In this document: positions 19,118 through 38,944 of the stretch, one piece after another
How the letters are laid out: each line of letters begins with the position of its first letter
How positions within the stretch are numbered: position 1 is the stretch's first letter
Assembly: GCA_937871625.1 (NCBI GenBank)
Contig: CALMRD010000276.1
Coordinates: forward strand, 1-58,134
Reading direction: 5' to 3'
DNA length: 58,134 bases
Origin: an uncultured Bacteroidales bacterium
GTDB taxonomy: Bacteria; Bacteroidota; Bacteroidia; Bacteroidales; VadinHA17
The notes under the pieces: model-generated
The model's input: only the letters and a program-made list of their open reading frames with translations
Databases searched by the model: none
Told to the model about the DNA's origin: nothing
Program-made: the position numbers and the translations under genes

Positions 19118-19261
19118 CAACGCTCTGCTGTCCGCGCTGTTGTGTCAAATGTACAACGCACTTCTGCCCTCACTGTTGTACCAAATGTGCAACGCTCTGC
19201 TGTCTTGGCTGTTGAATCAAAGATACAACACCCTGCTGTCCGCACTGTTGCGCCAAAGATA
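19118..19261 (-). repeat. four tandem 36-bp repeats, each carrying a -7 promoter-like box facing pepE
   Basis: Units at 19118-19153, 19154-19189, 19190-19225 and 19226-19261 are roughly 70-80 percent identical (CAACGCTCTGCTGTC....CTGTTG..TCAAAGATA). The minus strand of each unit starts with TACATTTG, CACATTTG, TATCTTTG or TATCTTTG. Three of these match TAnnTTTG exactly. Confidence 0.9.
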
Positions 19262-20389: not shown

Positions 20390-20414
20390 GGCGTTTACTT
20401 AATTATTATTTCAC

Positions 20415-20482
20415 GGGTCGAATGAAACCTGCATGAATACAGTAGTCATTTACTGCTGTGAGTTGCTGCTCATGCAAGTTTC
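20415..20482 (-). repeat. palindromic intergenic element, locus A (1 unit plus a vestige to 20509)
   Basis: Arms GGGTCGAATGAAACCTGCATGAA (20415-20437) and TCATGCAAGTTTC (20470-20482) flank a 32-nt loop. It is homologous to the units at 27774, 27861, 28746, 36438 and 36508, and ends 25 nt before ATG 20389. Confidence 0.85.
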
Positions 20483-20526
20483 TGTTCTTTATTGGTGGGA
20501 CGATCGGGGCACCCGGAAAGTTACAG

Positions 20527-21522
20527 TCAGGGGTAAGTTTTTTTTACCGGGGCAGAGAAGGTGAGCAGCGAGGAGCTGAAATTCGTTGTAAGCGGTTCCC
20601 CTTCATTATTTTTTTCCTGTTCCAGTTCCATCTCCCATCCCAGTACTCTGTTCACTCCCCTGATGCACGCATTGGCAATCAGGTATCCGTCAACACTTTC
20701 CGGTTCTTTTGTTATCGCTCGCGCCAACATGGAGACACCCCGGACTATCCAGTTACGATCTCTCTCCGCTGCCTCCACAGGGTTGACAGCCTTCAGTTCC
20801 ACCGGGGCGAGGCGGGAGGCTTCCGGTGCGGCCGCCAGGATGGGGAGTTCCCCGGCAAAATCATGCATCGTAACAATAACGGCATCTGATGTATGCGATT
20901 CCGGGGTTCTGCTGCCTGCCCACTCTTCACTTATTGCATCGGGGGATGAGCTGGTCACTGAGGCATCAATGTTATTCTGTTGCTTTACAAGAGTTATACC
21001 CTCTGCCGGCAGGGTTCTGATGACCGGTGATGCCTCGGCAATGAGTGCTTCACTCATTGTCTGTGCCTCAGCTATTGTTATTGCCTCATCCACTTTTTCT
21101 GTCTCAGCAACTGCCGGCGCTGCTGATCGGGTGCCGGACTTCGTCACTAACGGGCCCAGGATTACCATGGCTGCCAGTGTCGCGGCGACAGTAAGGGTGA
21201 CAATCAATGTGCGTCTCATGGCGTAGGCAGCCGGAGCAGCTTTCAACATTCTGTTTCTGCCTTCCCACCTGTCGTTCAGCGGTGAGAGCCTGATTTTCCT
21301 GAAGCTCTCTGCGCGGATTCTTCTTTCAGGACTGGCGGCCAGAGCCTCCTCTGTCTCGGCAAGACTGTCACCACGGAGAGAATCATCGGCCCATGCCGCC
21401 GCAAGGAGGTCAAACTGATCATCTGTCAGTTCTTCCGGCCTGCGAAACAGCCTGCGGCCCGACGGCAGACTGTCACCAGACGGTGTCAGTCGCGGGAATT
21501 CCATATCTTCCGTTATTGCCAT
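20527..21522 (-). CDS. putative anti-sigma factor (single-pass membrane protein)
   Basis: 331 aa. Its start overlaps the ECF sigma gene by 10 nt. It has a cytoplasmic N-domain, one TM segment (LIVTLTVAATLAAMVILGPL) and an extracytoplasmic C-domain. The call rests on architecture and position only. Confidence 0.5.
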   Translation of the reverse strand: MAITEDMEFPRLTPSGDSLPSGRRLFRRPEELTDDQFDLLAAAWADDSLRGDSLAETEEALAASPERRIRAESFRKIRLSPLNDRWEGRNRMLKAAPAAYAMRRTLIVTLTVAATLAAMVILGPLVTKSGTRSAAPAVAETEKVDEAITIAEAQTMSEALIAEASPVIRTLPAEGITLVKQQNNIDASVTSSSPDAISEEWAGSRTPESHTSDAVIVTMHDFAGELPILAAAPEASRLAPVELKAVNPVEAAERDRNWIVRGVSMLARAITKEPESVDGYLIANACIRGVNRVLGWEMELEQEKNNEGEPLTTNFSSSLLTFSAPVKKTYP

Positions 21523-21998
21523 ACTGATGTCTTTACCAGATAGTTCCTGAGAGCCACACGCCCCCTGAAGATATAGGTTTTGACCTGTGCCTCGGAGAGT
21601 CCGGTGATTTCAGCTATCTCCCTGTAACTGTACCCTTCATAGTCCCGCAACAGAATGACCGAGCGCTGTGCTTGCGGAAGGGTCTCCAGGGCCCTGTGCA
21701 GCACCTCGTTAAGGTCGCTGCCGTTATCCTCCGCATATAGTGAGCTGTCATCATAGTATTCCACATCCACCAGCCTGGAGTCTTTCCTGATAACATCAAT
21801 CATCCTGTTGTATGCCGTTGAAAAGAGCCATGATTTCACGGCGCCGTACTCTATTTCAGTGACACACCGCCACAGCTTCTCGTAGGTATCCTGTACGATA
21901 TCGTCAGCCCTGTGGCTGTCCTTGATGCTGCGGAGGATAAACCGGTAAACATGGTCACCGAACTCCCTGACGGCGTTATTGTACTCTTTTATGGTCAT
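21513..21998 (-). CDS. ECF-type RNA polymerase sigma-70 factor
   Basis: 161 aa. Sigma region 2 (DIVQDTYEKLW) and a region 4 HTH (YSYREIAEITGLSEAQVKTYIFRGRVALR). Confidence 0.85.
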   Translation of the reverse strand: MTIKEYNNAVREFGDHVYRFILRSIKDSHRADDIVQDTYEKLWRCVTEIEYGAVKSWLFSTAYNRMIDVIRKDSRLVDVEYYDDSSLYAEDNGSDLNEVLHRALETLPQAQRSVILLRDYEGYSYREIAEITGLSEAQVKTYIFRGRVALRNYLVKTSVWQ

Positions 21999-22060
21999 TC
22001 AGGTCAATGCACTGACATCATAAAGACGGCTGTAAGATGGCAAATGTTACAGCTCTCAGG

Positions 22061-22107
22061 AAAAAAAAGCCGCCGGTGTGCAGTTTTCAACTGCTTCACC
22101 GGACGGC
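22061..22107 (-). terminator. rho-independent terminator of the GH16-like gene
   Basis: On the minus strand: GCCGTCCGGTGAAGCAGTT-GAAA-AACTGCACACCGGCGGC followed by T8. It begins 24 nt after the stop at 22131. Confidence 0.8.
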
Positions 22108-22130
22108 CTATTCAGTGATATAGGTTTTTC

Positions 22131-23717
22131 TTATTTCTCCTGGTAAACCCTGATCCAGTCGATCTCCATTGATGAGATCCCTCCTATGGGCTTGTCTACG
22201 CCGCCGGCAAGGTTTATATACATCTCCTCCTGGGGCACGCCGGTTGTCTGGCGCATCACCTCCACGCCATTGATCTTCCAGATTAGGCTCTGGGGCGTCC
22301 ACTCGAGGGTGTATATGTAGAAATCAGAGAGATACCTTGATCCGATGCTCTTTTTGTAATGGTTGCCAGGGGAGGAGAAGAGGTCAAACCAGACCTTTCC
22401 GTTTCCCGACCTGCAAACGTCAACATGAGGTGTAATTCTGTTACCGATCAGCCAGAAGGCGTTGCGGACATTGTGGTCGGCAAGCTTGATCTTGGCAGAG
22501 AAGATCCCGTATTTCTGCCTGAATGAGGCGCCGGTGTTAACTATACCGGAGGTAAAGTTGAAATCCTTGTTATAGAAACCCTTTGACGAATCCCATACCT
22601 TACCGGTTATCTTCTGTGGTTTGGTGATGATGCGAAGCACGCTGTGACGCACCTCTAAATTGTCCGAAGGTGTGTAATAGTGAAGATCAGTGGCAATACT
22701 GTAGCTGTCGTGAAGCAGTTTATCTCCCCAGTAGTATTTGTTGATCCATTTGCTGCTGTCAGGGGCAGGTCCGTCGAACTCATCGCTGAAAGTGAGTTTG
22801 CGGTTTTTGATGATATCAAACTTGTTGGAATCCTTAACGCTGAAGTACCATTTGATGTCAGGTGAACTCTTCAGGGTCTCATACTCCTTAAGCTCCTTGA
22901 ACATCTCACTCTTTTCGAACCGGCGCTTATCGAGCAGGTACTCTTTCCTCTCCGTAAACTCCTTAGTCTTGAGATACTCCTGGAGTTCATGGTACCTCTT
23001 CAGGCGTGCGGAATCCTTTACACCGGTGTAGTTGTGATATTCCTTTGAATTGCGGAACCTGTAATAGGAAACAATATCCGAAGCACTCTTTTTGGTTTTG
23101 AGTTCCTGCAGCTTCTGATATTCGGGAGTATCCCTGAATGTGACGGGCTTCATGTTTTTCTTCAGCAGGAAGGCCGATGAGGTCACCAGGGACTGCAACT
23201 CGGAGAACCTCTTCACCTTTTCGGGATTAAGATTCTTCTTAACCTCCTTGTCTTTCTTCAGTTTTTTGAATTCCAGCCACTTGCCATACTCCTCCGTATC
23301 CTTGAATGTCACCGGTTTCATCTTCTCCTTCTGCCTGAATTCAGGCGACTGCACGAAGAGCTGAAGATCTTCGATATCCTTTATTCTGGCTGATCCGTCA
23401 AGCGACTGGAAATTCTTCAGGAGGGCGCTGCCCTCTGTCCTGAAATATGATACAATGTCTTTTGCCTTCTGCAGGCCCATGAATTCAGTCTCCCTGGCGT
23501 GCTCCTCCGAGCCTTTGTAGGCAAGCGATTCTATCTCCTTCTTTTTCTGCATGAAGCCGGCCGAGTTGACACTCTCGTGCAATACGTTGTATCGTGCCAG
23601 TGCTTCAGAGCCGGCAAAGGCGATCATCTTTTCATACTCGGCAATCAGAGCCTTCTCTTCCTGTTCGATCTTGGAGGTTGAGGGGATCATCCCCAGCATC
23701 AGCTTTAAGGTTGACAT
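22131..23717 (-). CDS. GH16-fold (concanavalin-like glucanase) domain protein with repetitive charged N-terminal region; catalytic Glu residues absent
   Basis: 528 aa. The C-terminal ~215 aa has GH16 landmarks (FSDEFDG, SGIVNT, NAFWLIG, YTLEWTP, IDWIRVY). The ExDxxE motif reads HVDVCR instead. The N-terminal ~300 aa is Lys/Glu-rich with internal duplications. No signal peptide. Confidence 0.7.
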   Translation of the reverse strand: MSTLKLMLGMIPSTSKIEQEEKALIAEYEKMIAFAGSEALARYNVLHESVNSAGFMQKKKEIESLAYKGSEEHARETEFMGLQKAKDIVSYFRTEGSALLKNFQSLDGSARIKDIEDLQLFVQSPEFRQKEKMKPVTFKDTEEYGKWLEFKKLKKDKEVKKNLNPEKVKRFSELQSLVTSSAFLLKKNMKPVTFRDTPEYQKLQELKTKKSASDIVSYYRFRNSKEYHNYTGVKDSARLKRYHELQEYLKTKEFTERKEYLLDKRRFEKSEMFKELKEYETLKSSPDIKWYFSVKDSNKFDIIKNRKLTFSDEFDGPAPDSSKWINKYYWGDKLLHDSYSIATDLHYYTPSDNLEVRHSVLRIITKPQKITGKVWDSSKGFYNKDFNFTSGIVNTGASFRQKYGIFSAKIKLADHNVRNAFWLIGNRITPHVDVCRSGNGKVWFDLFSSPGNHYKKSIGSRYLSDFYIYTLEWTPQSLIWKINGVEVMRQTTGVPQEEMYINLAGGVDKPIGGISSMEIDWIRVYQEK

Positions 23718-23865
23718 TGCAGGTTGCTTTTTGGTATAGTTCGGATAAAGTTAAATATCTTTCAAACATTATAGTCGCATCAGCCAATTATTTGTTAATT
23801 AGGCAATAACAAACAAAATCGGATCAGTTGCGACAAATAGTTTATTTTCAACAGAATAAAAACGG

Positions 23866-24651
23866 ATGAAAAAGCTCATTATTGTTACCCTTCTGATAAT
23901 GGTGGCCTCCTGTGCCACTGTGAAACAAACAACCCAGTCCGCGGAGGAGGACCAGGACCATCTGATTCTTGCCACGCTATGGTACCAGAAATCAGCCGAG
24001 ATGCGCGCACTTTTCTACCAGTGCTTCCGGAATGCGGAGATCGCTCTTGCGGAAAACCTCGCATGGGCTGGCCGGGTGAAGCCCGCAGCCGTAGTTCTTG
24101 ATATTGACGAGACCCTGCTCGACAACTCCCCCTTCCAGGGATGGCAGGTATTTGAGAAGAAATCCTTCAACAATGACGACTGGTTCCGGTGGGTGGAGCT
24201 GGCACGCGCCAGGCCTCTCCCGGGTGCGGTGGAGTTCACCAGGTACGCCGATTCACTGGGAGTGGAGGTCTTCTATGTCTCCAACAGAACCGTGCAGGAG
24301 ATGGGACCCACAATTGAAAACATGGCAACCCGGGGATTTGTCAACGCCGACAGCACCCACATGCTGCTTAAGGAGACAACCTCCTCAAAGGTGGAGAGAC
24401 GGGCACTCATTGAAAAGGACTATGAAATTCTGTTGTTGGTAGGAGACAACCTCGCGGATCACAGCGGGCTTTACGAGAAACGGGGCTCTGACTACGGTTT
24501 TGAGGCTGTTGATGCTGACCGCCACCTGTTTGGCACGAAATACATTGTGCTTCCCAACCCCATGTACGGCAACTGGCTCAATGAGATTGTCCGGTCAGCC
24601 CCGGTCAGCACTGAGCATGAGAAACTTCTGAACATGCTTGAGGGGTTCTGA
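23866..24651 (+). CDS. 5'-nucleotidase / class C acid phosphatase, lipoprotein e(P4) family
   Basis: 261 aa. Lipoprotein signal MKKLIIVTLLIMVASC and the DDDD-superfamily motifs VVLDIDETLLDNS and VGDNLADH. Confidence 0.85.
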   Translation: MKKLIIVTLLIMVASCATVKQTTQSAEEDQDHLILATLWYQKSAEMRALFYQCFRNAEIALAENLAWAGRVKPAAVVLDIDETLLDNSPFQGWQVFEKKSFNNDDWFRWVELARARPLPGAVEFTRYADSLGVEVFYVSNRTVQEMGPTIENMATRGFVNADSTHMLLKETTSSKVERRALIEKDYEILLLVGDNLADHSGLYEKRGSDYGFEAVDADRHLFGTKYIVLPNPMYGNWLNEIVRSAPVSTEHEKLLNMLEGF

Positions 24652-24754
24652 CACCACCCCTGCAATTCTAAATATTTACAAATCCCCCCGAAATATTGTT
24701 GTATCAAAACATCAGTAATGATGTTATAATGTTGTTTTATAACAACAAATAATA

Positions 24755-24762
24755 TATATTTG
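24755..24762 (+). promoter_or_regulatory. candidate -7 promoter box (TATATTTG) for the DUF4143 ATPase gene
   Basis: Matches TAnnTTTG 22 nt upstream of ATG 24784. A GTTG lies 20 nt further upstream. Confidence 0.4.
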
Positions 24763-24783
24763 TGTTTTATTATCAAAACAATT

Positions 24784-25977
24784 ATGGAATCAATTCTTGA
24801 GCTCTCTGAGTCCAGAGTGACAAACATTTCCGCAAATCAGTCCCGGTATCTTATGAACCAAATACCCGGGGACCAGAGACTTGTATTGATCCGTGGCTCA
24901 AGAGGCACCGGCAAAACCACACTGTTGCTTCAATTTCTGAGGTCTCTTGAACTTCCCTCTTCCAGGGCTGTGTTTATAAGCCTAGATGACATTATTTTCA
25001 GTCGTCACCCAGCCGAGGATTTTACTGATTGGTTTGTCAAAAGAGGGGGAGAATACCTTTTTATTGACGAAGTGCACAGAAATCCTAATTGGTCTGTAAT
25101 TGTCAAATCACTGTACGACCGTTATCCGAATCTGAAAATGCTTATTTCCGGGTCTTCCGCATTACAGATGGAGAAGGGAGAAGCAGATCTCAGCAGGCGG
25201 ATGCTTACCTTAAATCTGAATGAACTTTCCCTGAGGGAATTTATTTCGATGAAATATGATATTGATTTCCCGGCAATATCTATAGAAGAGTTGTTGATTG
25301 GGCACGAAAGAATAGCCAGGGAAGTATCATCTCAGGCAAAGCCACTGATGTTTCTTGATGAGTACCTTAAATACGGGGCATACCCCTATTTCCTGGAAGG
25401 GATCCAATATTACCATGAACGTGTTGCAAATTCGGTCAAAGCCGTTCTCGACACTGATCTCCCGGCAGTTTCTGGTATTACTTATGGAACGATTCTTAAG
25501 ATCAGAAAACTGCTGTCGGTTCTTGCAGAAGCAGTTCCGTTCACTCCAAATATCAATGAACTCAGTGGCAGGGTAGGAATATCGCGTGATCTTTTGTACC
25601 GGTATCTTCACCTCCTCGAACAGGCTGGGCTGATATACCAGTTGAGGAGAGATTCAAGGGGTATCAGCATGATGTCGAAGCCAGAGAAAATATATCTTCA
25701 TAATACAAATCTTTCACAAGCGCTTACACTTCATCACCCTGACAAAGGATCGGAGCGCGAAACCTTTTTCTTAAACCAGGTCTCTGCCAGGTATAAAGTT
25801 AATTACCCTGACAAAGGGGATTTTGTTGTAGGTGGCAGGTACACAATAGAAGTAGGTGGCAGGAAGAAAACCGGCAGGCAAATAGCAGAAGTTGATAACG
25901 CTTTCGTCGTGAGGGATGATATTGAATATGGTTCGGGAAAAACAATTCCGTTATGGCTCTTTGGGTTTTTGTATTAA
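24784..25977 (+). CDS. AAA-family ATPase with DUF4143-like C-terminal domain
   Basis: About 397 aa. Walker A GSRGTGKTT and Walker B LFIDEVH. The sequence is visibly AT-rich compared with its flanks. The ORF-track start at 24760 is a TTG inside the promoter box. Confidence 0.8.
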   Translation: MESILELSESRVTNISANQSRYLMNQIPGDQRLVLIRGSRGTGKTTLLLQFLRSLELPSSRAVFISLDDIIFSRHPAEDFTDWFVKRGGEYLFIDEVHRNPNWSVIVKSLYDRYPNLKMLISGSSALQMEKGEADLSRRMLTLNLNELSLREFISMKYDIDFPAISIEELLIGHERIAREVSSQAKPLMFLDEYLKYGAYPYFLEGIQYYHERVANSVKAVLDTDLPAVSGITYGTILKIRKLLSVLAEAVPFTPNINELSGRVGISRDLLYRYLHLLEQAGLIYQLRRDSRGISMMSKPEKIYLHNTNLSQALTLHHPDKGSERETFFLNQVSARYKVNYPDKGDFVVGGRYTIEVGGRKKTGRQIAEVDNAFVVRDDIEYGSGKTIPLWLFGFLY

Positions 25978-25984
25978 TTTGCCG

Positions 25985-26032
25985 ATCGTAATCGCAAAAT
26001 TCACATTAAAATTGCGAATATAATCTTACGAT
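25985..26032 (+). other. nested hairpin just after the ATPase stop codon
   Basis: An outer stem ATCGTAA / TTACGAT and an inner stem TCGCAA / TTGCGA enclose a 14-nt loop. There is no U-tract, so a terminator role is uncertain. Confidence 0.3.
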
Positions 26033-26291
26033 TAAACTGATTAACATCCGGAAGCCCGGCAAGAATTCAAGGATGCCGGTTGTTTTTACTGAATCATATC
26101 CCGGATCCCACGGAACTGTAATCACCCTGGACAATTTTGAAGACTTTCTGCTCTGATTATTCTGGTATAATCACCATCAACTGAGCAAATTCTATTTTCC
26201 TGATCGATTAGGATTGTATTCATTCAAGACATTATAAATAAATCCTTTACGTCGACGACTATATAAATAGACGAAAAAACATTAATGTCCA

Positions 26292-27051: not shown

Positions 27052-27140
27052 ACCTTATCTTTGACCGACCGTTCAGTCATAAAGACGGTTTTTTATAGGG
27101 GGAATTATTGGTTAACCGGTCATTCAAAAAGAGATAAGGG

Positions 27141-27773
27141 ATGTCACCAAGAACTCCGGATCAGTTTGAGATGATGAGGGAGGAGAAGAGAAACCTCATC
27201 ATGAACGTGGCACTGGAACATTTTTCCAACCAGGGATTCCAGGCTACAACAATAACCCATATAGCAAAGCATGCAGGCATATCAAAGGGCCTCATGTACA
27301 ACTATTTCAATAGCAAGGAAGACCTGCTTACGGCTATTATGGACAGGTCAGTGACGGAGATATACGGATATTTCAATCCCGATCACGACAGCCAGCTGAC
27401 CCCCGAAGAATTTGAACTCTTCATACGGAAAGTATTCAGAATTCTTCGTGAAAAGAGACAATTCTGGAAACTGCTCTTCAGGATAATGATGCAGCCGGGA
27501 GTATATGAAAAGCTTTTCGGGGATGAATCAGGATCATTGAAAATTACCGGGTTACCCTTCCGGAACTACACCGAAAACATGATGAACCTCCTGGTTGAGT
27601 ATTTCAAAAAGAAGGGTGACAATGCCGGTCCGGGCTATGACCCGATGACTGATTTGCTAATGTTCATAAACGCAATCAAGGGGTTTGCCATCACCTCAAT
27701 TTTTTCCGAGGAACAATACCAGGGTGAATATTTTGAAAAAGTAACGGATGCACTGATAAAAAGATATAAATGA
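27141..27773 (+). CDS. TetR/AcrR family transcriptional regulator
   Basis: 210 aa with an N-terminal HTH (FQATTITHIAKHAGISKGLMYNYFNSKEDLL). Confidence 0.85.
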   Translation: MSPRTPDQFEMMREEKRNLIMNVALEHFSNQGFQATTITHIAKHAGISKGLMYNYFNSKEDLLTAIMDRSVTEIYGYFNPDHDSQLTPEEFELFIRKVFRILREKRQFWKLLFRIMMQPGVYEKLFGDESGSLKITGLPFRNYTENMMNLLVEYFKKKGDNAGPGYDPMTDLLMFINAIKGFAITSIFSEEQYQGEYFEKVTDALIKRYK

Positions 27774-27936
27774 GAATTGCATGAGCCGGAGCTTCGCCGG
27801 GAATGTAATTGTGACCTTCATGCAAGCCAGACGCAATAAATGACATAAATAATTTACAAGCGAATGTAACTTGCATAAGTAGCAAATCACAAAAGGAAAT
27901 GATTATTTTTCTTCATGCAGGTTCCATCAGACCAAT
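27774..27936 (+). repeat. palindromic intergenic element, locus B (2 tandem units)
   Basis: Unit B1 (27774-27837): GAATTGCATGA, 32-nt loop, TTCATGCAAGCCAGACGCAAT. Unit B2 (27861-27936): CGAATGTAACTTGCATAA, 33-nt loop, TTCATGCAGGTTCCATCAGACCAAT. The locus starts right after the tetR stop and ends 22 nt before ATG 27959. Confidence 0.85.
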
Positions 27937-27958
27937 AAAGTAATAAACAAATAATCCA

Positions 27959-28729
27959 ATGAAAATAACAGGTCAGATAATTGCAGGCATCATTTTGCTG
28001 CTTCTGCTGCCAGGCGGCAGGCAGGCCACGGCACAACAGCTGAGTGCCAGGGAGATCATCAGGAAAACCGATGAGAAATTCAACGGTGAGCTCTCGGGCT
28101 ACAGCGTCATGAGCATGACCATAGTGCGCCCCACATGGCAGCGTACCCTTGAGTTTAAATCGTGGGCACTGGAAGATGACTTTGCCCTCACCCTGATCAC
28201 CGCACCGGCGCGCGAAAAGGGACAGACATTCCTCAAGCGGGGCACGGAGATGTGGAGCTGGAATCCCGCCATCAACAGGCTTATCAAGCTGCCGCCCTCA
28301 ATGATGTCGCAGGGCTGGATGGGTTCGGACTACACCAATGATGATATCCTCAGAGAGTCCTCTGTGGTGGAAGACTATACCCACTCCTTCGAGGGAGAGG
28401 AGGAGATTGACGGCCGCATGTGCCACAGGATAAGGCTGGAGGCAAAGGATGATGCCGATGTCCTCTGGAGCCACCAGTTGTGGTGGGTTGATAAAAATGA
28501 ATTTATCGTCCTGAAAGCCGAACTCTACGATGAGGACGGCTACCTGGTCAGGACGGAGCGTGGCACGGAGCTGAAGACAATGGACGGAAGGTTCATCCCC
28601 ACAGTTATAGAGCTGATCCCCGCCGAGGAGCCGGGCCGCAGGACCATCCTGAAAATAACAGAGGTAAAATTCAATGTGAAAATTGAAGAGAGCTTCTTCT
28701 CGCAGCAGAATATGAAGACAATCAGATAG
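27959..28729 (+). CDS. LolA-like outer-membrane lipoprotein-sorting family protein
   Basis: 256 aa with a signal peptide. Sequence resembles the LolA_like family (WSWNP, MGSDYTNDD). Confidence 0.75.
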   Translation: MKITGQIIAGIILLLLLPGGRQATAQQLSAREIIRKTDEKFNGELSGYSVMSMTIVRPTWQRTLEFKSWALEDDFALTLITAPAREKGQTFLKRGTEMWSWNPAINRLIKLPPSMMSQGWMGSDYTNDDILRESSVVEDYTHSFEGEEEIDGRMCHRIRLEAKDDADVLWSHQLWWVDKNEFIVLKAELYDEDGYLVRTERGTELKTMDGRFIPTVIELIPAEEPGRRTILKITEVKFNVKIEESFFSQQNMKTIR

Positions 28730-28745
28730 AGTCCGTCAAATATCC

Positions 28746-28820
28746 ATTGGGATGTAACTTACATGAGCAGCAACACGCAAAGGGATATGATTTTTTTCAT
28801 GTAAGTTCCATTCGACCATT
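28746..28820 (+). repeat. palindromic intergenic element, locus C (1 unit, best preserved arms)
   Basis: ATTGGGATGTAACTTACATGA, 29-nt loop, TTCATGTAAGTTCCATTCGACCATT. It ends 19 nt before ATG 28840. Confidence 0.9.
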
Positions 28821-28839
28821 GAAATAAATAATTAATCGA

Positions 28840-30255
28840 ATGAAAAACCATCAGCTTGCCTGGAGAAATCTATGGCGAAACAAAAGGAGGACCCTCATCA
28901 CTGCGGCATCAGTATTCTTTGCAGTCTTCTTCGCACTTGTGATGAGGTCGTTTCAGCTGGGTACATACGAAAAGATGTACAGGGATGTCATCGAATCCTA
29001 CTCCGGATACCTGCAGCTACAGCACACTGACTACATAGACGAATCGAATCTTGACAATGGGTTTGTGCTTGAACACTCCCTGTCGGACATCATAGGGGCT
29101 GACCCAAATGTAACAGGGGTTATTCCGAAGCTGGAATCGTTCGCACTGGCCGCTGCCGGAAGCCGCACCCAGGGTGTGATGGTGATAGGTATGGATCCCG
29201 ACAATGAGCAGAAGACTCTGAACATAAAAAACCGTCTCATAAAGTACCGGCTGACTCCTGAGGCAACTGAAGCTCTTATAGAGGAAAACCTGCCTGCCCG
29301 CACTGCAAAACTGGTCGATGTTTTTTCAGGTGAGGCCTGGACTGATGAGAAGAGCCTCATCTCTGACCTCGGCATAAGCGATGAAGATTCGGCAGCAGTG
29401 ATGCCTCTTTTCAGGAAGCATGCATCACTCGACAACCGATATATCAATTCAGCAGATTCGGGCCGTGCTATCATAGGATACGGACTGTCGCGTTATCTCA
29501 GTGCTGACGTGGGAGACACCCTGGTGATTATGGGACAGGGCTATCACGGCGTATCCGCAGCCGGACTATTTGTGATCAAAGGGATAGTGAGCATGCCAAA
29601 CCCCGATATAGACAACGCTTTCGTATATATTACACTTGATGATGCCCGCTGGCTCTATGCTGCACCGGGGATGGTCACCTCGGCCATCATAAGTATAAGC
29701 GATACAGATGATAAGGAGCTTCTTCAGACGCAACAGAGGCTGAACGAATTATGCAATAACGGGCTGGTAATACGCAACTGGAAGGAGATGAACGCACTGC
29801 TGCTTAACCAGATGGAGGCTGATAACAAGAGCGGGGCAATCATGATAGGCATCCTTTACCTGGTGATAGCCTTCGGAGTTTTCGGCACCGTTCTTATGAT
29901 GATGGCTGAACGGAGAAGGGAGTTTGGAATGCTGGTCTCAATAGGTATGCAGAAGCGCAAGCTGGCCGGCATAGTAGGTATGGAGATGCTCTTTATCGGG
30001 TTGCTGGGTGTGTTGGCAGGCGTGGCGGCATCGCTGCCGATAGTCTTTTACGGCTATGCCCGGCCGCTGCGCTTCACCGGGGAGCTGGCAAGAATGTACG
30101 AAGAGTACGGATTTGAACCTGTGATGCCCATGCTTCTTCCGGATACCTACTACCTGTGGCAGGCAGTGATAGTGCTGCTGATACTGCTGATAGCCATCAC
30201 CTTCAGCGTGCGGAGGATTTTCAAATTGAACATAATAAATGCTCTCAGAGCTTAA
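28840..30255 (+). CDS. ABC transporter permease, FtsX/MacB-type
   Basis: 471 aa. One N-terminal TM segment, a large periplasmic domain and three C-terminal TM segments (FtsX domain). Confidence 0.85.
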   Translation: MKNHQLAWRNLWRNKRRTLITAASVFFAVFFALVMRSFQLGTYEKMYRDVIESYSGYLQLQHTDYIDESNLDNGFVLEHSLSDIIGADPNVTGVIPKLESFALAAAGSRTQGVMVIGMDPDNEQKTLNIKNRLIKYRLTPEATEALIEENLPARTAKLVDVFSGEAWTDEKSLISDLGISDEDSAAVMPLFRKHASLDNRYINSADSGRAIIGYGLSRYLSADVGDTLVIMGQGYHGVSAAGLFVIKGIVSMPNPDIDNAFVYITLDDARWLYAAPGMVTSAIISISDTDDKELLQTQQRLNELCNNGLVIRNWKEMNALLLNQMEADNKSGAIMIGILYLVIAFGVFGTVLMMMAERRREFGMLVSIGMQKRKLAGIVGMEMLFIGLLGVLAGVAASLPIVFYGYARPLRFTGELARMYEEYGFEPVMPMLLPDTYYLWQAVIVLLILLIAITFSVRRIFKLNIINALRA

Positions 30256-30267
30256 CAGAAGACTAAG

Positions 30268-31695
30268 ATGATAACATCCATTGCATGGAAGAATGTCTGG
30301 AGAAACAAAACCAGGAGCCTGACCGTGATTGCCGCCGTGACCGTGGGCGTCTTTGCCGGCGTATTCGCCATGGCTGCCATCAACAGCTCTATTGTACAGC
30401 GGATTGATGCCGCTGTCAACGAGGAGCTGTCGCATATCCAGATAGACAACCCCGGGTTCAGGGGCAGCAGTGACATAGCCAATGTGATAGCTGAACCGGA
30501 GAAGGTTGTCTCAGTACTCGAAGAGACACCGGGAGTGACCCATATTACCGGACGGATCATAGTGCGGGGAATAGCCTCAACATCTGCCGGCAGCGCAGGC
30601 GTGGAGATCAACGGCATTGACGTTGAAAAAGAGCAGCAGATCTTTACTCTTAAGGAGCGTCTCATACCCGGGACCGGTAGCTACTTCGGCAGTGACACCA
30701 GGCTCAACAGCGCCTTCATCGGCGAAAAGCTGGCGAAGGAGCTCTATATTATCAGGTATATCCTCACGGAGGAATCTTTTGCCACACTTGATGCTGAGGG
30801 TGTCCCGGCAGCCGTAACCGGTAAACTCAAACCCCTCGAAAACCAGAGGTTCACCACGGAAAAGAAGCTGTCAGAGGCTCTTTCCGGGTTGCTCTCCGCG
30901 AAGGAGGTGAAGCTGTACGCCATGAAGATAAAAGAGGCAGCATGGTCATACCGTGAGGGATCAAAGGTCATCCTTACCTTCCTCGATGCCAATGGCACAC
31001 AGACAGGCGCCGCGTTCCGCATCAGCGGCATATTCCGGACGAACAACGACTTTTTCGAGGCCTTTTCTGTATTTGTGCCTCGTGATGAGCTGCTCAGGCT
31101 CACAGGGATGGAAGAGGGGCAATATCACCGCATCATTGCAAGGCTGGAAGAGAATGACCTGACTGAGAGGGCTAGTGCCGCAGTTAAGGCATCTCTGCCG
31201 GGACTGGAGGTGATGAACTGGAAGCAGATACAGACTGACCTGGCAATGATAGCCGATTATGTAAACCAGATCTACGGCATCTTCATGGTGCTGATACTGG
31301 CAGCCCTGGCATTCGGTATAGTAAATACCATGCTTATGGCCGTGCTCGAGCGAACCCGTGAGCTGGGCATGCTTTCGGCAATAGGGATGAACCGCAGGCG
31401 TGTCTTTGCAATGATTATGCTTGAATCGATATTCCTTTCAATAGTAGGCGGCTTTGCGGGAATGGCTGTAAGCGCCATTGTAATAGCAATCACCAATCAT
31501 ACCGGCATCAACCTGGTGAAGTATGCAGAGGGTCTCGAAGCCTTCGGATACTCAGCCCATCTCTATCCGACAATCGGAGCAGATTTCTTTATCATGCTGA
31601 CTGTAATGATCGTTATCACCGGAATCATTTCAGCCATTTATCCTGCCAGGAAAGCGTTGCAGCTCAACCCGGTTGAAGCATTAAGAGGAGAATAA
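30268..31695 (+). CDS. ABC transporter permease, FtsX/MacB-type (second copy)
   Basis: 475 aa with the same topology as the preceding gene. It starts 12 nt downstream of it. Confidence 0.85.
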   Translation: MITSIAWKNVWRNKTRSLTVIAAVTVGVFAGVFAMAAINSSIVQRIDAAVNEELSHIQIDNPGFRGSSDIANVIAEPEKVVSVLEETPGVTHITGRIIVRGIASTSAGSAGVEINGIDVEKEQQIFTLKERLIPGTGSYFGSDTRLNSAFIGEKLAKELYIIRYILTEESFATLDAEGVPAAVTGKLKPLENQRFTTEKKLSEALSGLLSAKEVKLYAMKIKEAAWSYREGSKVILTFLDANGTQTGAAFRISGIFRTNNDFFEAFSVFVPRDELLRLTGMEEGQYHRIIARLEENDLTERASAAVKASLPGLEVMNWKQIQTDLAMIADYVNQIYGIFMVLILAALAFGIVNTMLMAVLERTRELGMLSAIGMNRRRVFAMIMLESIFLSIVGGFAGMAVSAIVIAITNHTGINLVKYAEGLEAFGYSAHLYPTIGADFFIMLTVMIVITGIISAIYPARKALQLNPVEALRGE

Positions 31696-31713
31696 CCAGA
31701 AAAACACAATACG

Positions 31714-32409
31714 ATGAAAGTAGTTGAAATCAATGATGTCTTCAAGACCTATCATGATACCGCGGTAGAGGTGAAAGCCGTCAACGGCGTCACTCTCAGT
31801 TTTGACAAGGGCGATTTTGCAGTGATTGTGGGACCGTCCGGCTCAGGCAAGACCACCCTTCTGAACCTCATTGGGGGACTTGACCAGCCCACCGCCGGTG
31901 AGATAATTGTTGCCGGGCACAGGCTTTCGGAACTGAAGCCTTCCGAGCTGATTGACTTCCGCATGGAGCATGTGGGGTTCGTCTTCCAGTCGTACAACCT
32001 CATACCCGTTCTCACGGCTTCAGAGAATGTGGGATTCATCATGAGCCTTCAGAAATGGCCGAAGGAGAAGCGTATGGCCCGCACAGGAGAGCTGCTGGAA
32101 GCCGTAGGCCTCTCTGAGCGTCACAACAGCCGTCCGTCACAGCTCTCCGGCGGCCAGCAGCAGAGAGTTGCCGTAGCCCGCGCCCTGGCACCGCGACCGC
32201 AGTTCATACTGGCTGATGAACCCACCGCCAACCTTGACACAAAATCGGCCGAGACCCTTCTTGATATCATGGAAAAACTGAACCGTGAGGAGGAGATGAC
32301 CTTTATATTCTCCACCCATGATGTGAGAGTGATGAAGCGGGCACGAAGGGTCATCACCCTCGAGGATGGCAAGGTGGTTTCTGACGAAAGGACAAACCAC
32401 AATTCATGA
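31714..32409 (+). CDS. ABC transporter ATP-binding protein (MacB/LolD-like)
   Basis: 231 aa. Walker A GPSGSGKTT, signature LSGGQQQRV, Walker B FILADEPT. Confidence 0.9.
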   Translation: MKVVEINDVFKTYHDTAVEVKAVNGVTLSFDKGDFAVIVGPSGSGKTTLLNLIGGLDQPTAGEIIVAGHRLSELKPSELIDFRMEHVGFVFQSYNLIPVLTASENVGFIMSLQKWPKEKRMARTGELLEAVGLSERHNSRPSQLSGGQQQRVAVARALAPRPQFILADEPTANLDTKSAETLLDIMEKLNREEEMTFIFSTHDVRVMKRARRVITLEDGKVVSDERTNHNS

Positions 32410-33635
32410 AGCTGACACACTTTCCGGCAGCCCTTCTGCTCTGCGCAATGCTCCCGTCAGCAGGCCTCGCCGGCATGAACGCTGAGGTCTCCGGAAGTGA
32501 CACGTCGCAAAGAGCGGCCGGTATCATCTATGGACCCGAAGAACAGGAGAAGCAGATCAGCCTCACTGCAGGGGGATATGCCTCATGGCTCCATACAGCC
32601 ATGTTCGAAAAGCCTGCAGAGACCTGGATCAACAGCAGCATGCTTCATAACAGGCTTAACTTCAAGGCATATGCCGGTAGTAAAGTAACCTTTGCCCTTG
32701 AACTGCGCAACAGGTTCGTCACCGGCGACATGGTTGCCCTGGACCCTGGTTACGTAACAGGACTTGCGGCAGACAACGGATGGATCGACCTGTCATGGAA
32801 CATATCCGACGGCAACTCCTATGTCCTGAACACCATGATTGACAGGGCCTATCTTGACATAGCGCTGGGCAGGCTGCAGGTCACCGCCGGCCGCCAGCGC
32901 ATCAACTGGAGCCAGTCGCTGGTATGGAACCCCAATGATATCTTCAACACCTATTCCTTCTTTGATTTCGATTATGTTGAGCGTCCGGGCAGTGACGCCC
33001 TCCGGCTGGTATATTCCACCGGTGCCTCATCTGCTGCGGAGGCCGCCGTCAAGGTCAACAGCCATGGCCGGCTTACGGCCGCTGGGCTCTTCCGCTTCAG
33101 CCTGCTGAACACCGACCTGCAGTTTTTTGCCGGGGAGACCGATGAGGAGTTCTTCACCGCCGGTACAGGATGGTCAGGAGCCCTCGGGCCGTTCTCCGTC
33201 AGGGGTGAGGCAACACTCTTTGCACCTTTTGAAGGGTCAGAGCATGAAGGGAGCACCGTAATTGCCACCGCCGGCATTGACAGAGCCTTCTCAGACAGGC
33301 TGACAGCCATGGTGCAGGTGATGTACTCAAACAGGCCGCTTTTACTTGACAGCTTCACCGCCCTTTATGAGGGGGGGCTGACGGCCAGAGACCTTGCCTT
33401 CTCGGAGTTCAGCGCCGTGGGACAGGTGACCTGGATGCCGATGCCCCTTCTCAGCATCTCCATGTCGGCCATGTGGTACCCTGACCTTGATGGATGGTAT
33501 GCCGGCCCCTCAGTGGATCTCTCACTGGCTGAGAATGTCGATTTCTCATTTCTCTGGCAGCATTTTGACATGCGTCTTGCCAATGCGGAGACGAAGCTCA
33601 ACCTTGGCTTCCTGAGGATCAGGTATAGTTTCTGA
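32406..33635 (+). CDS. putative outer-membrane beta-barrel protein, function unknown
   Basis: 409 aa. Its ATGA start overlaps the ABC ATPase stop. It has a signal peptide, a beta-strand-like alternation throughout, and a C-terminal ...LRIRYSF with a terminal Phe. Confidence 0.55.
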   Translation: MKLTHFPAALLLCAMLPSAGLAGMNAEVSGSDTSQRAAGIIYGPEEQEKQISLTAGGYASWLHTAMFEKPAETWINSSMLHNRLNFKAYAGSKVTFALELRNRFVTGDMVALDPGYVTGLAADNGWIDLSWNISDGNSYVLNTMIDRAYLDIALGRLQVTAGRQRINWSQSLVWNPNDIFNTYSFFDFDYVERPGSDALRLVYSTGASSAAEAAVKVNSHGRLTAAGLFRFSLLNTDLQFFAGETDEEFFTAGTGWSGALGPFSVRGEATLFAPFEGSEHEGSTVIATAGIDRAFSDRLTAMVQVMYSNRPLLLDSFTALYEGGLTARDLAFSEFSAVGQVTWMPMPLLSISMSAMWYPDLDGWYAGPSVDLSLAENVDFSFLWQHFDMRLANAETKLNLGFLRIRYSF

Positions 33636-33746
33636 AACCCCCGTGTGTCAGCACGCACAAATACAAGTAAATAATAATCTGATACATGGAAGTTCTCCCG
33701 ATAAACCGGGAGAGGCGGCTATCATACAAACTAAATCAATTATTGT

Positions 33747-34523
33747 ATGATGAAATTTTCATACTTTTACGGAGTTAACTCCGAAAGTATGTCACTGGTC
33801 CATGAACTTGAGAAATCCGGGAACTGGTTATTCAGACGCAGAAGCTGGCTGCCTGTCATGGTTCTTGTTCCGGCAGTAATATATCTCTTCATCGCAAACC
33901 GCAGTGTCATCTATTTCAACTACACCTGGGAGATAGCATGCATCCTGGTATCGGTGTCAGGTGAACTGCTAAGGTCTTATACAGTTGGGTATGTGCCCCG
34001 CAACACTTCCGGGCGCAACGTCATCGATCAGCTGGCCGATGAGCTGAATACAACAGGCATCTATTCCATAGTACGCAATCCTCTCTACCTTGGCAACTTC
34101 CTGATGTGGCTGGGACCTGTCATATTCCTGAGGTCTGTTTGGTGCCTCATCATTTTCATCCTGGCCTTCTGGCTCTACTATGAACGGATAATATTTGCCG
34201 AGGAGCAGTACCTCCGTCGCAAGTTCGGGGAGACATATGATATATGGGCCTTCAGGGTGAAAGCGGTTATACCCTCTTTCAGGCATTACAAAAAGCCGGC
34301 CCTGCCCTTCTCCTTCAGAAATGTTCTCAAGCGCGAGTACAACAGCATAGCCAATCTGTTCATCGTCTTTGCCATCCTCGATATGGTCCGGAATATTGCA
34401 GTTACCGGACGGGTTTATATGGAGCCGATGTACGTTACCCTGCTGGTTGCAACCGGCATCTTCTGGGCGATAGCGAGGTACCTGGTCAAGCGCACCAGGT
34501 TCCTGAACGTTGACGGGAGATAG
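33747..34523 (+). CDS. isoprenylcysteine carboxyl methyltransferase (ICMT/PEMT-like) family membrane protein
   Basis: 258 aa, multi-TM, with the family block GIYSIVRNPLYLGNFLMWLG and EEQYLRRKFG. The exact start is uncertain (33747, 33750 or 33789). Confidence 0.7.
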   Translation: MMKFSYFYGVNSESMSLVHELEKSGNWLFRRRSWLPVMVLVPAVIYLFIANRSVIYFNYTWEIACILVSVSGELLRSYTVGYVPRNTSGRNVIDQLADELNTTGIYSIVRNPLYLGNFLMWLGPVIFLRSVWCLIIFILAFWLYYERIIFAEEQYLRRKFGETYDIWAFRVKAVIPSFRHYKKPALPFSFRNVLKREYNSIANLFIVFAILDMVRNIAVTGRVYMEPMYVTLLVATGIFWAIARYLVKRTRFLNVDGR

Positions 34524-34535
34524 GTGGCGATGATT

Positions 34536-35243
34536 CTACCTGTCGCGTACCCCCATGAATATCATTATATAGTAAATAAGCGTGGCCAGTGATCCCAGGG
34601 CTGCGATCACATAGGTATATGCTGCCCATCTCAGGGCATCCTCAGCCTTGTCGTGTGTCTCACGGTTGGTGATACCTGCGTTTGAGAGCCATGCCAGTGC
34701 ACGCTTTGAGGCGTTGATCTCCACAGGCAGGGTGATGACGCTGAAGATGGTGGTAAGGGCGAACAAACCGATGCCTACCAGGAGTATCTCGGGCCGCGAG
34801 TTGATTAGCACCAGTCCGGCAATAAGTACCCATTGTATCCAGTTCGAGGCAAAACTAACCGCCGGGGCAAGTTTCGATCTCATATTCAGCCATGCATATG
34901 ACTGAGCATGCTGCAGGGCATGACCCGTCTCATGGGCGGCCACTGCGGCGGCGGCGATGCTGGCATTGGAATAGACCTCACGACTGAGGTTTATGGTCTT
35001 CTTCAGCGGATTGTAATGGTCAGAGAGCTCCCCCTGTACGCTTTTTATGGTGACGTCGGTAACACCGTTATCGCGCAGCATCCTTTCAGCCACATCGCGT
35101 CCGGTCATGCCGCTGCCTATCGGCATCTTCGAATATTTCCGGAACTTGGACTTCAGCCTGTGGCTGACTACCCAGCTCAGAAGCATGAAGACTATAAAAA
35201 TGATCCAGTAGGTGCCATTGTGCAAAAACATTGTCTCGCTCAT
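34536..35243 (-). CDS. membrane zinc metallopeptidase (YugP-like)
   Basis: 235 aa. HExxH motif in AAHETGHALQH, flanked by TM segments. Confidence 0.8.
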   Translation of the reverse strand: MSETMFLHNGTYWIIFIVFMLLSWVVSHRLKSKFRKYSKMPIGSGMTGRDVAERMLRDNGVTDVTIKSVQGELSDHYNPLKKTINLSREVYSNASIAAAAVAAHETGHALQHAQSYAWLNMRSKLAPAVSFASNWIQWVLIAGLVLINSRPEILLVGIGLFALTTIFSVITLPVEINASKRALAWLSNAGITNRETHDKAEDALRWAAYTYVIAALGSLATLIYYIMIFMGVRDR

Positions 35244-35337
35244 ATATCCTTAAGTTTATTATGTCACTCTATTATCAAAACATCTGCCATTCCCTTCAGG
35301 TTCTGAAAAGAGGCCATTTTGTCATGACAATTCAGAT

Positions 35338-35345
35338 TATCTTTG
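35338..35345 (+). promoter_or_regulatory. candidate -7 promoter box (TATCTTTG) for yidD
   Basis: Matches TAnnTTTG only 7 nt before ATG 35352, which implies a near-leaderless transcript. A TTTG lies 16 nt upstream. Confidence 0.3.
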
Positions 35346-35351
35346 AGGGCG

Positions 35352-35666
35352 ATGTTAAAGACAGCTGCAAAGATATTCTCTTTTTTACTGCTGATACCGG
35401 TCTGGATATACAGGTGGTTTATTTCGCCATGGACTCCCTCCTCGTGCCGTCATGTGCCTACATGCTCGCAGTATGCCATTGATGCCCTCACGACTCACGG
35501 CCCGCTGGCAGGAACCCTGCTTGCTGCTGACCGCATCCTCCGGTGCAGGCCCGGGGGCACACACGGATACGATCCTGTGCCCCGTTTCATCTTCAGGCGT
35601 TATCGTTCCGGGGTTGGTCTCATGAGGAGGGCTCCCCGCTGCAACAGGCTGAAGGAGAGAGATTAG
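35352..35666 (+). CDS. yidD: membrane protein insertion efficiency factor YidD
   Basis: Conserved YidD core: IYRWFISPW...[21 protein letters not shown] 35352 is preferred over the TTG at 35343. It has a basic C-terminal tail of about 25 aa. Confidence 0.85.
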
Positions 35667-36415
35667 AAACTGAGTTTTTCCCTGAGCATCTTATATCCGG
35701 CACGGCTAACCGGGATCTTTTCACCGGATTTGAGCACGGCCACGTAGTTGTCCTTGCTGTAGGGTTCGAGCCTGGTGATATATTCCACATTGACCATGAA
35801 CGAACGGTGCACCCTTATGAACAGAGCCGGCGGAAGATGCTCCTCATAATACTTCATGGTCTTGGGCTTCAAGGCCTTGCCTTCGGTATGATATATCATC
35901 ACGTAATCATCCTCCGCTGCAAGGTGAGAGACATTGTTCAGAGGGATAATCTTTATTCCTGCACCCTTTCTGAATACTATTCGTGTCAGGTAACCCTCGC
36001 TCTCCGAGACGGCGGTAACGAGCCTGTCAATCTTCTCCGGCTCCCTCTCCTGCTTGTTTATACGGCTTACAGCCTTTTCGAGGGCATCATCAAAGCGCTC
36101 CTTTGTGAATGGTTTAAGCAGGTAATCGACAGCATTAAGCTCAAAGGCCCTGATGGCATACTGGTCGAAGGCGGTGGTAAAGATCACCTCTGGCTTTTCA
36201 TCTATCACTTCCAGCAGCTCGAAGCCTGTAAGCTTGGGCATCTGTATGTCGAGGAAAATAAGGTCGGGGTGTTTCTCCTTTATCTCCCTGGCACCGCAGA
36301 AACCGTCACCACACTCACCCGCAATCTCTATGGCTGGATGATCTTTGAGCATATACTTAATCAGCTCTCGTGCAGGTGCTTCATCTTCGATGATAAGTGC
36401 TCTTATCTTTTTCAT
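35663..36415 (-). CDS. LytTR-family two-component response regulator
   Basis: 250 aa. Receiver motifs ([22 protein letters not shown]) plus a C-terminal LytTR DNA-binding domain. Confidence 0.9.
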
Positions 36416-36437
36416 TCGGTTAATTAATTATTATCTT

Positions 36438-36579
36438 ATTGGTCGAATGGAACTTACATGCAGTAAATGATCTTTGCTTTATGCGAGTTATTGCTTATGT
36501 AAGTTTCATTGGTCGAATAGAACTTGCATGAATTTTCTGATCAAAACCTGTTGCGGGTTCCTGCTCATGCAAGTTTCAT
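36438..36579 (-). repeat. palindromic intergenic element, locus D (2 tandem units, 70-bp period)
   Basis: Plus-strand reading of unit 1 (36438-36507): ATTGGTCGAATGGAACTTACATGCA, 32 nt, TTATGTAAGTTTC. Unit 2 (36508-36579): ATTGGTCGAATAGAACTTGCATGAA, 32 nt, TCATGCAAGTTTCAT. The locus fills the kinase-regulator gap and ends 22 nt before ATG 36415. Confidence 0.9.
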
Positions 36580-36594
36580 CCCGAAATGATATTT

Positions 36595-37653: not shown

Positions 37654-37656
37654 ATA

Positions 37657-38400: not shown

Positions 38401-38426
38401 CAGTAGAAGATTATTTGGTTTGGATG

Positions 38427-38762: not shown

Positions 38763-38785
38763 GTCGGTCGATTTGGTTTTCAGAT

Positions 38786-38793: not shown

Positions 38794-38839
38794 CCATCAC
38801 TTACCACCCCGTTACCAGAGATTTCCGGCAGGATGCGGA

Positions 38840-38924: not shown

Positions 38925-38944
38925 CAGACCGAAAAAAAGGGAAG

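Follow-up and report, generated by a model that had tools for sequence, protein, structure and literature searches.

A 58,134-nucleotide (nt) contig of an uncultured Bacteroidales bacterium (CALMRD010000276.1; the whole stretch is hereafter referred to as the window) carries, in four intergenic spacers, copies of one hairpin repeat that point the same way as the gene that follows and stand at a fixed distance from its start codon. Why a dispersed repeat should keep so strictly to the starts of genes is the question that this locus raises. A first reading of the letters, made without database searches (the sequence-only reading), took the polarity as an argument for a role at the RNA level over a mobile element. 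Here we report that the repeat is a structured, multi-copy, lineage-restricted insertion that lies exactly at start codons and leaves the reading frame intact. It is probably a non-autonomous, orientation-specific mobile element that targets the pentamer ATGAA and restores the start codon.

Anatomy of the repeat unit

Copies lying side by side reveal a full unit of about 95–100 nt, start codon included. In gene orientation, the unit consists of ATGAA, a hairpin (P1), a helix (P2) formed across an A/T-rich loop and a second ATGAA, with the consensus ATGA-AACTTRCATGAG-[loop with CTCACAAAAGGAAATGA]-TTCATGYAAGTT-CCATTCGACCAAT-GAAATAATAATTAAATAA-TCGA-ATGAAA. Its ends are therefore direct repeats (ATGAA...ATGAA) rather than inverted ones. 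The sequence-only reading was right about the fixed distance to the ATG and about P1, but it let the unit end 19–25 nt before the start codon, whereas the unit runs through ATGAA, and it missed P2.

P1 comprises 11–15 base pairs (bp) between the arms (ATGA)AACTTRCATGA and TCATGYAAGTT(CCAT), which enclose a loop of about 30 nt with the conserved motif CTCACAAAAGGAAATGA; in its 15-bp form (ATGAAACTTGCATGA/TCATGCAAGTTCCAT) it includes a conserved A.C mismatch. P2 pairs CATNNGA with TCNNATG (CAUUCGA/UCGAAUG) and closes a 23-nt A/T-rich loop, and its AUG is the start codon. The last three pairs of the extended P1 use the CAT that is also used by P2, and the two pairings are thus mutually exclusive. 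The upstream ATG opens a mini-open reading frame (ORF), ATG AAA CTT RCA TGA, with four codons and then a stop; its peptide is not conserved, as start-stop variants (ATGTAA) occur. Two other roles for P1 were set aside: a small ORF in its loop, because the loop indels (judged by eye) are not frame-preserving, and an intrinsic terminator, because no U-run follows P1 in the sequence.

The copies fall into two subfamilies, A and B, distinct in loop and tail, and some carry additional G+C-rich palindromes between the helices or a longer P1 loop. In subfamily B (L073:593-683, L076:2513-2640, L057:1330-1459, L072:1361-1445, L003 and L006; L-numbers are labels of compared loci), perfect G+C-rich palindromes, such as CCTGCCTGCCGGCAGGCAGG and CCCCGCATTAGGCGGGG, lie between P1 and P2, and a second insert, CCGAGCTTGAAAAGCGAGCTCAGCGAAGCTAA, follows CCAA in L006, L024 and L025. 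The subfamily B inserts could be nested small palindromic elements or variable stems. Units also stand head to tail, with a period of about 95 nt, or of 70–71 nt when the next unit starts at an ATGAA inside the preceding tail.

In the window, the units are as follows.

20385..20484, minus strand: unit 1, upstream of the OMP_b-brl_2 gene (ATG 20389-20387), 83 bits; P1 arms 20470-20482 and 20424-20436
27770..27863, plus strand: unit 2, decayed, 25 bits (E=0.014); arms GAATTGCATGA (27774-27784) and TTCATGCAAGCC (27817-27828)
27864..27963, plus strand: unit 3, intact, from 5′ ATGTA (27864-27868) to ATGAA (27959-27963), 100 bits; P1 27866-27878 with 27912-27925, P2 27925-27931 with 27955-27961
28752..28844, plus strand: unit 4, intact, between the LolA-like and FtsX genes, 99 bits; P1 28754-28766 with 28796-28809, P2 CATTCGA (28809-28815) with TCGAATG (28836-28842)
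36510..36579, minus strand: unit 5, upstream member of a tandem pair, P1 complete, 5′ ATGAA 36579-36575, 48 bits
36411..36509, minus strand: unit 6, intact, from 5′ ATGAA (36509-36505) to ATGAA (36415-36411), 98 bits; P2 CATTCGA (36449-36443) with CCGAATG (36419-36413)
33633..33710, plus strand: possible seventh copy, heavily decayed, TGAAAC...CACAAATAC...AATAATAATCTGATACATGGAAGTTCTCCCGA, by eye

The scores come from a covariance model of 59 units run over the whole window without filters, with matches at 27860-27967 (100 bits), 28748-28848 (99), 36407-36513 (98), 20381-20488 (83), 36514-36583 (48) and 27766-27856 (25, E=0.014). A weak match at 33628-33708, over the possible seventh copy, is not significant (15.8 bits, E=0.78), and all others are reverse-strand echoes of the palindrome. 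The right-arm pattern TTCATGYARGTTYYATTCGACC (22 nt, up to 3 mismatches) occurs five times against 0.00 expected and the left-arm pattern six times against 0.65, and repeat finding yields the same copies. Patterns and model together recover, at the coordinates and on the strands given there, all six units named by the sequence-only reading, which had also recognized that their loops are homologous; four are intact or nearly so (83–100 bits), whereas the one it placed at 27774-27837 is decayed and the one at 36508-36579 lacks its tail.

Units 3, 4 and 6 end in the starts of the LolA-like gene, the FtsX gene (ATG 28840-28842) and the LytTR response-regulator gene (LytTR and Response_reg domains), respectively, and P2 of unit 4 is present in the minimum-free-energy fold. 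Unit 1 has CAGAA as its 5′ pentamer, a deletion in the tail and a degenerate P2 (AACGCC precedes the ATG); it is also present at the orthologous loci L001 and L054, and the orthologous locus L030 likewise has a unit at the LytTR regulator site. The tail of unit 5 ends early, after CTATTCGACCA, and unit 6 begins at the position of that tail's ATGAA (a 70-nt period); the 70–71-nt arrangement was also found in L040. The possible seventh copy starts on the stop codon of an ORF (32406-33635) and can also be read as TGAAAC...CACAAATAC...ACATGGAAGTTCTCCCGA.

P1 and P2 are both maintained by compensatory changes. From an alignment of 59 canonical units, RNAalifold independently predicts both helices. 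Over the 18 pairs scored, 93.8% of cells form standard pairs, as compared with 14–33% when the 3′ partners are slid by 1–3 columns, and the covariation score is 0.152 against 0.080 in shuffles, with none of 500 shuffles reaching 0.152. Covarying pairs include 14-64 (GC 27, AU 21, GU 7), 74-106 (UA 41, CG 8) and 75-105 (CG 34, AU 15, UA 4), and P2 exists in at least five fully complementary versions (TTCG/CGAA, TTAG/CTAA, TCAG/CTGA, TCTG/CAGA and TACA/TGTA). At one orthologous site, a short-loop variant shows compensatory change in both helices (AACAGCATGA/TCATGCTGTT and CATCTG/CAGATG). This variant (L059:6021-6100 and L082:874-953; 9-nt P1 loop) differs in P1 and P2 sequence from the canonical unit of L055:2117-2222, although the three loci share the site and their downstream proteins are 91–94% identical, which indicates that copies were replaced or that compensatory evolution in place was rapid.

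Whole units fold as P1 plus P2 with z of about −3, and the antisense strand folds at least equally well. Three conserved A.C oppositions on the sense strand (53/59, 40/59 and 49/59) become G.T wobbles if the bottom strand folds. The fold is therefore possible on either strand, as RNA or as single-stranded DNA.

Filled sites, empty sites and host genes

Among 80 orthologous LolA-like loci from metagenomes (64–89% identity), which we scanned with the model, the element is present only in the closest, L114 (89%), and absent from the other 79. At the LolA-to-FtsX junction, the spacer is shorter than 60 nt in 49 of 72 scorable loci, and element arms occur only in L114. Empty relatives have a stop codon, a 27–30-nt spacer and ATGAAAGAT..., whereas the window has a stop codon, a 22-nt spacer, ATGTAAC...unit...TCGA and ATGAAAAAC... 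At the TetR-to-LolA junction of empty relatives, stop and start overlap (cagATGAaagg). In the window, the old ATGA is kept as the TetR stop (27771-27773), the decayed unit 2 begins directly on it, and the 3′ end of unit 3 provides the LolA gene with a new ATG. In a further comparison of a filled with an empty site (L068 and L111; downstream protein 86% identical), both sides are homologous and homology resumes exactly at ATGAAAAAATGG. With 79 of 80 orthologous loci lacking the element, and with filled and empty junctions that are exact, the strict polarity does not speak for an RNA role, as the sequence-only reading had argued; orientation-specific insertion at ATGAA would explain it.

ATGAA (TTCAT) stands at both boundaries of filled sites and once in empty sites, a pattern that fits either a target motif plus an element-borne end or a 5-bp duplication. 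The variability of the 5′ and 3′ pentamers across copies favours neither ATGAA as the element-borne one. A nested insertion is more informative: L054 has the OMP-locus arrangement of the window plus one complete unit at the GTGAA of the older tail, and this unit is bounded by GTGAA on the left, as in the uninterrupted window copy, and by ATGAA on the right, which hints that the right-hand ATGAA travels with the element. As judged by sequence identity, orthologous genes can carry very different copies: in L044 and L110, the elements are 64% identical and fourfold-degenerate sites 86%. In other lineages, unrelated hairpin repeats lie at the LolA-to-FtsX junction (L135, L144, L146, L148 and L154; L143 and L167), namely a heptamer inverted array, (GTTACTG)n ... 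(CAGCAAC)n, and G/C-rich palindromes (CCCCCTTTGAAGGGGG...), and the junction seems to be a recurrent collecting point for small palindromic elements.

Scanning one genome per species with the two-arm pattern gave at least 113 loci, and the counts that follow are drawn from the matches listed. Nearly all belong to uncultured Bacteroidales or Rikenellaceae-like metagenome-assembled genomes, in which a single genome can hold 9–13 or more copies spread over different contigs; a few matches, such as L012, L021, L031 and L047, are due to chance and unrelated. Typical copies between Bacteroidales-like flanks also lie on short contigs of metagenome-assembled genomes placed in distant phyla (L027, under the label Candidatus Nealsonbacteria; L032, in Balneolales; L079, in Synergistaceae). 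L027 hardly differs from L032, and both come from one sediment study; all three contigs are probably mis-binned.

Positions and orientations across the family were tabulated with a crude ORF-based gene caller. Of 103 scored instances, 49 have the first ATG of a long ORF 34–35 nt past the right arm, and about 63 have it 29–37 nt past. In 58 of 93 strong model matches, the terminal ATG opens a long ORF; among the remainder, a few precede another unit and about nine have a gene start 7–25 nt further on. The downstream neighbour is co-oriented in 77 strong matches and not in 12. The polarity noticed in the window, and the position relative to start codons, hold for about 100 further copies (more than 100 lie beyond it). 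Upstream, the neighbour shares the strand of the element in 57, its stop codon often no more than 40 nt away, and is divergent in 28. Copies at a gene start make up 48 of 69 in subfamily A and 9 of 23 in subfamily B. Of the 32 copies that do not abut a gene, 27 keep the terminal ATGAA, and P2 pairing was also seen by eye in the non-start copies inspected. In three genomes (L059:654-761, L040:5153-5259 and L082:6311-6417), the terminal ATG opens a conserved small ORF of 26–39 codons (MKSKQKV...) that precedes an opposite-strand gene and may be an unannotated small protein gene.

The 56 downstream proteins matched 82 Pfam families, none of which occurs in more than two members. The host genes include those for formate-tetrahydrofolate ligase, acetate kinase, cysteinyl-tRNA synthetase (CysRS), glycine dehydrogenase (GcvP), D-Ala-D-Ala ligase (Ddl), pyruvate kinase, Rnf, an outer-membrane efflux protein, sulfatases and glycoside hydrolases. 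Among the element-free genes of the compared loci, about 23% start with ATGAA, and ATGAA is occupied at 57 of 189 gene starts, as compared with 32 of 346 other intergenic ATGAA/TTCAT sites (odds ratio 4.2, p=2e-9).

Proposed mechanism and alternative explanations

In the model that we favour, the element would insert in one orientation at ATGAA, which often forms the first five bases of genes (Met-Lys/Asn/Glu). An element that has ATGAA at either end would give the target gene back its frame and start codon, while the upstream copy would be closed after four codons or would preserve an overlapping upstream stop codon. Such insertions would be tolerated and accumulate, which would explain why polarity is so strict and the spacing to start codons so constant. 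Insertion would also hit the ATGAA motifs that the element itself carries, at its end and within the tail, hence the head-to-tail arrays and nested copies. Among the options of the sequence-only reading, a portable translation-initiation cassette came closest, in that the unit supplies an A/T-rich leader and ends in an ATGAA that serves as the gene start. The hairpins are putative transposase recognition features, possibly acting on single-stranded DNA as in IS200/IS605 elements and their derivatives, the palindrome-associated transposable elements (PATEs), and the single CAT between the helices could pair with the ATG at either end, resembling the pairing of guide with cleavage site in IS200/IS605. 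From these parallels we infer PATE-like transposition through single-stranded DNA. On the sense-strand RNA, P2 may damp or modulate host-gene translation.

Several observations weigh against this model. No RayT-like or IS608-TnpA-like ORF was found in about 1.2 Mb of collected loci (phmmer with E. coli RayT and IS608 TnpA, the latter probe validated beforehand), and an orphan-arm search of the same loci revealed no long parent element with the same arms, only palindrome echoes and a single copy whose P1 loop is longer (L002:219). In typical IS200/IS605 members, the hairpins at the two ends resemble each other, whereas P1 (AACTTGCATGA) and P2 (CATTCGA) share no sequence, and the element's putative cleavage sites fall within helices, not in single-stranded flanks. 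Either ATGAA copy may be the element-borne one, and either strand may fold. The roughly fourfold excess at gene starts is not accounted for by the pentamer alone: because start-codon ATGAA sites are occupied far more often than the others, a wider target context, or selection against insertion at other intergenic positions, must contribute besides the pentamer. All figures for position and orientation carry the crudeness of the gene caller. Finally, in some orthologous pairs other than L044 and L110, the element is 91–95% identical, as compared with 64–70% at fourfold-degenerate sites, a conservation that could reflect a selected function rather than a passive passenger, although the flanking 60 nt are 83–87% identical as well.

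The last point leads to the alternative that survives best, although we consider it unlikely: a cis-acting RNA module on the sense mRNA, for which transposition would merely be the way of spreading. P1 would be a hairpin for stabilization or processing, and P2 would keep the start codon weakly paired across the A/U-rich loop; CAU could pair with the AUG of the mini-ORF (extended P1) or of the gene (P2), yielding a translational switch or thermosensor. The covariation of both helices, the CAU triplet common to the P1 extension and P2, the folding of whole units (z of about −3), the constant sense orientation at gene starts and some orthologous copies conserved far beyond synonymous sites all fit this idea. 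So does the setting, as translation in Bacteroidetes initiates without Shine–Dalgarno pairing and depends on unstructured A-rich leaders. Against an RNA module, the host genes have no common function, and they work without the element in the 79 orthologous loci that lack it; the terminal ATGAA is equally well kept in 27 of the 32 copies away from genes, as, by eye, is P2 in those inspected. The conserved A.C mismatches weaken the sense fold, and the antisense folds at least equally well. Moreover, the mini-ORF is not conserved as a peptide, and Rfam has no match. A more specific version, an exapted, transposon-distributed switch in which CAU alternates between the two AUGs and access is set by ribosomes moving along the mini-ORF, by temperature or by a trans-acting factor, is in our estimate a long shot; if true, it would govern start-codon access for dozens to hundreds of unrelated genes simultaneously, without Shine–Dalgarno-driven initiation.

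We regard as very improbable a repeat of the repetitive extragenic palindrome (REP) or bacterial interspersed mosaic element (BIME) type that a REP-associated tyrosine transposase would mobilize, or a recombination site like the attC of integrons that folds as single-stranded DNA. The element shares with REP/BIMEs its nature as an intergenic hairpin repeat, dispersed and clustered in many copies per genome, with a structure kept by compensatory change; its conserved stem mismatch (A8.C70) recalls the extrahelical bases seen in attC or IS608 hairpins, and AAC...GTT stands at the stem base. However, REPs are defined as 20–40-nt palindromes with a GTAG or CGTC tag at one end (PMC3733652), whereas this unit measures 95 nt, has a large conserved loop of 30 nt and lacks either tag. 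Its arrays are direct rather than alternating, it is tied to the start codon of the downstream gene rather than to the 3′ end of the upstream one, and the collected loci yielded no RayT homologue. As for attC, which stands at the 3′ ends of promoterless cassettes lined up beside an integrase, the arms ATGAAAC...GTTCCAT match its core sites RYYYAAC...GTTRRRY only in AAC/GTT, and the host genes, dispersed across many contigs, are housekeeping and other ordinary chromosomal genes that form no cassette array.

The genes around the window units fall into three arrangements, each on one strand (Pfam). The first comprises an extracytoplasmic function (ECF) sigma factor (21513-21998), a 331-residue protein without a Pfam match (possibly an anti-sigma factor), the element and the outer-membrane beta-barrel gene. 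The second consists of TetR, two units, the LolA-like gene, one unit, two FtsX genes, an ABC ATPase and a 409-residue protein without a Pfam match, and the third of two LiaF-like proteins, a histidine kinase (PF06580), two units and the LytTR response regulator. The neighbourhood at 35663-39601 and 19337-21998 resembles envelope-stress sensing, with two LiaF-like membrane proteins, a PF06580 histidine kinase and the LytTR regulator, and the ECF sigma factor and outer-membrane protein (OMP) beta-barrel gene nearby. A tandem repeat at 19118-19257 (36-nt unit, 3.9 copies, 73% matches; CAACGCTCTGCTGTCCGCACTGTTGTACCAAATGTA), located in the spacer that separates the Peptidase_S51 gene from the OMP gene, has no relation to the hairpin element.

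That all window copies lie within 16 kb beside the ECF sigma, LiaF-like/His_kinase/LytTR and LolA/FtsX/ABC operons, and that the inverted arms could form a dimer site, might suggest an operator or promoter of the LytTR regulator (35663-36415) or of the ECF sigma factor (left arm GAAAC-N17-CGCA as an ECF-type promoter) in an envelope-stress regulon. This explanation, and with it the regulator binding site of the sequence-only reading, is effectively refuted by the diversity of host genes (82 Pfam families for 56 genes), which are unrelated in function and elsewhere range from formate-tetrahydrofolate ligase, acetate kinase, CysRS, GcvP and Ddl to pyruvate kinase, Rnf and sulfatases, and also by the head-to-tail arrays, by helices with compensatory changes that a protein-binding site does not need, and by orthologous operons without the element.

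If the ATGAA insertion model holds, the start codon itself is the safe harbour of this mobile element, which leaves a harmless four-codon stub there and supplies a new start and an A/U-rich leader; to our knowledge, no such insertion strategy has been described. One internal triplet that pairs with both element ends would possibly represent a new layout for hairpin-guided transposition. The family also provides a natural experiment, in which more than 100 unrelated genes share one structured leader of about 95 nt in bacteria that do not use Shine–Dalgarno pairing, useful for studying start-codon selection in Bacteroidetes. For annotation, gene callers can be misled by start codons beside the repeats and by the mini-ORFs to which the repeats give rise.

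Comparison with known systems

The element is previously undescribed. The sequence-only reading had recognized no named RNA or repeat family in it; Rfam gave no match at gathering thresholds over the whole window and none at E<=1 over 27700-28900; no match was found in phage, plasmid or IMG/VR collections; a literature search for the arm sequences retrieved only unrelated primers; and nothing equivalent was found in the literature on REP elements and MITEs (miniature inverted-repeat transposable elements) in Bacteroidetes. The sequence-only reading's description of a dispersed hairpin repeat of MITE- or REP-like form stands.

Classical bacterial MITEs, such as the Correia elements of Neisseria and the MITEs of Porphyromonas gingivalis (PMC4596501), are likewise non-autonomous repeats of about 100–150 nt in many copies, foldable, co-transcribed with neighbouring genes and present or absent by lineage, and some sit in 5′ regions and alter expression. 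By contrast, the inverted repeat described here is internal rather than terminal and followed by a conserved 35-nt tail, the flanking repeat is always ATGAA-like rather than a target-site duplication that differs from site to site, the orientation is strict and the insertion is at the start codon itself. Rickettsia palindromic elements are also mobile palindromic repeats that survive by preserving the host reading frame, but they insert within coding sequence and are translated, whereas the present element stays outside and regenerates the first five bases of the gene.

The closest likeness is to PATEs. We know of no report of start-codon targeting and rebuilding for the IS200/IS605 family, and the unit is only about 95 nt long, P1 is unlike P2, the presumed cleavage sites are within helices and the collected loci (about 1.2 Mb) yielded no TnpA. 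In IS200/IS605 elements, a pentamer beside the left end defines the target, gene-less PATE derivatives are mobilized in trans, and TTCAT, the complement of ATGAA, is the experimentally established transposon-adjacent motif of ISGst5 (bioRxiv 10.1101/2023.03.14.532601). Like PATEs, the element is short, gene-less and presumably mobilized in trans; it has hairpins near both ends on one strand (P1 and P2) and no terminal inverted repeats; it would insert in a strand- and orientation-specific manner beside a fixed pentamer, TTCAT on the bottom strand as in ISGst5; and its own end repeats the target motif, which would explain the head-to-tail arrays. Collectively, the element works most like a PATE or another hairpin-bearing non-autonomous element, although it lacks or may lack several features that define each of the named families, and what sets it apart is insertion at, and regeneration of, the start codon.

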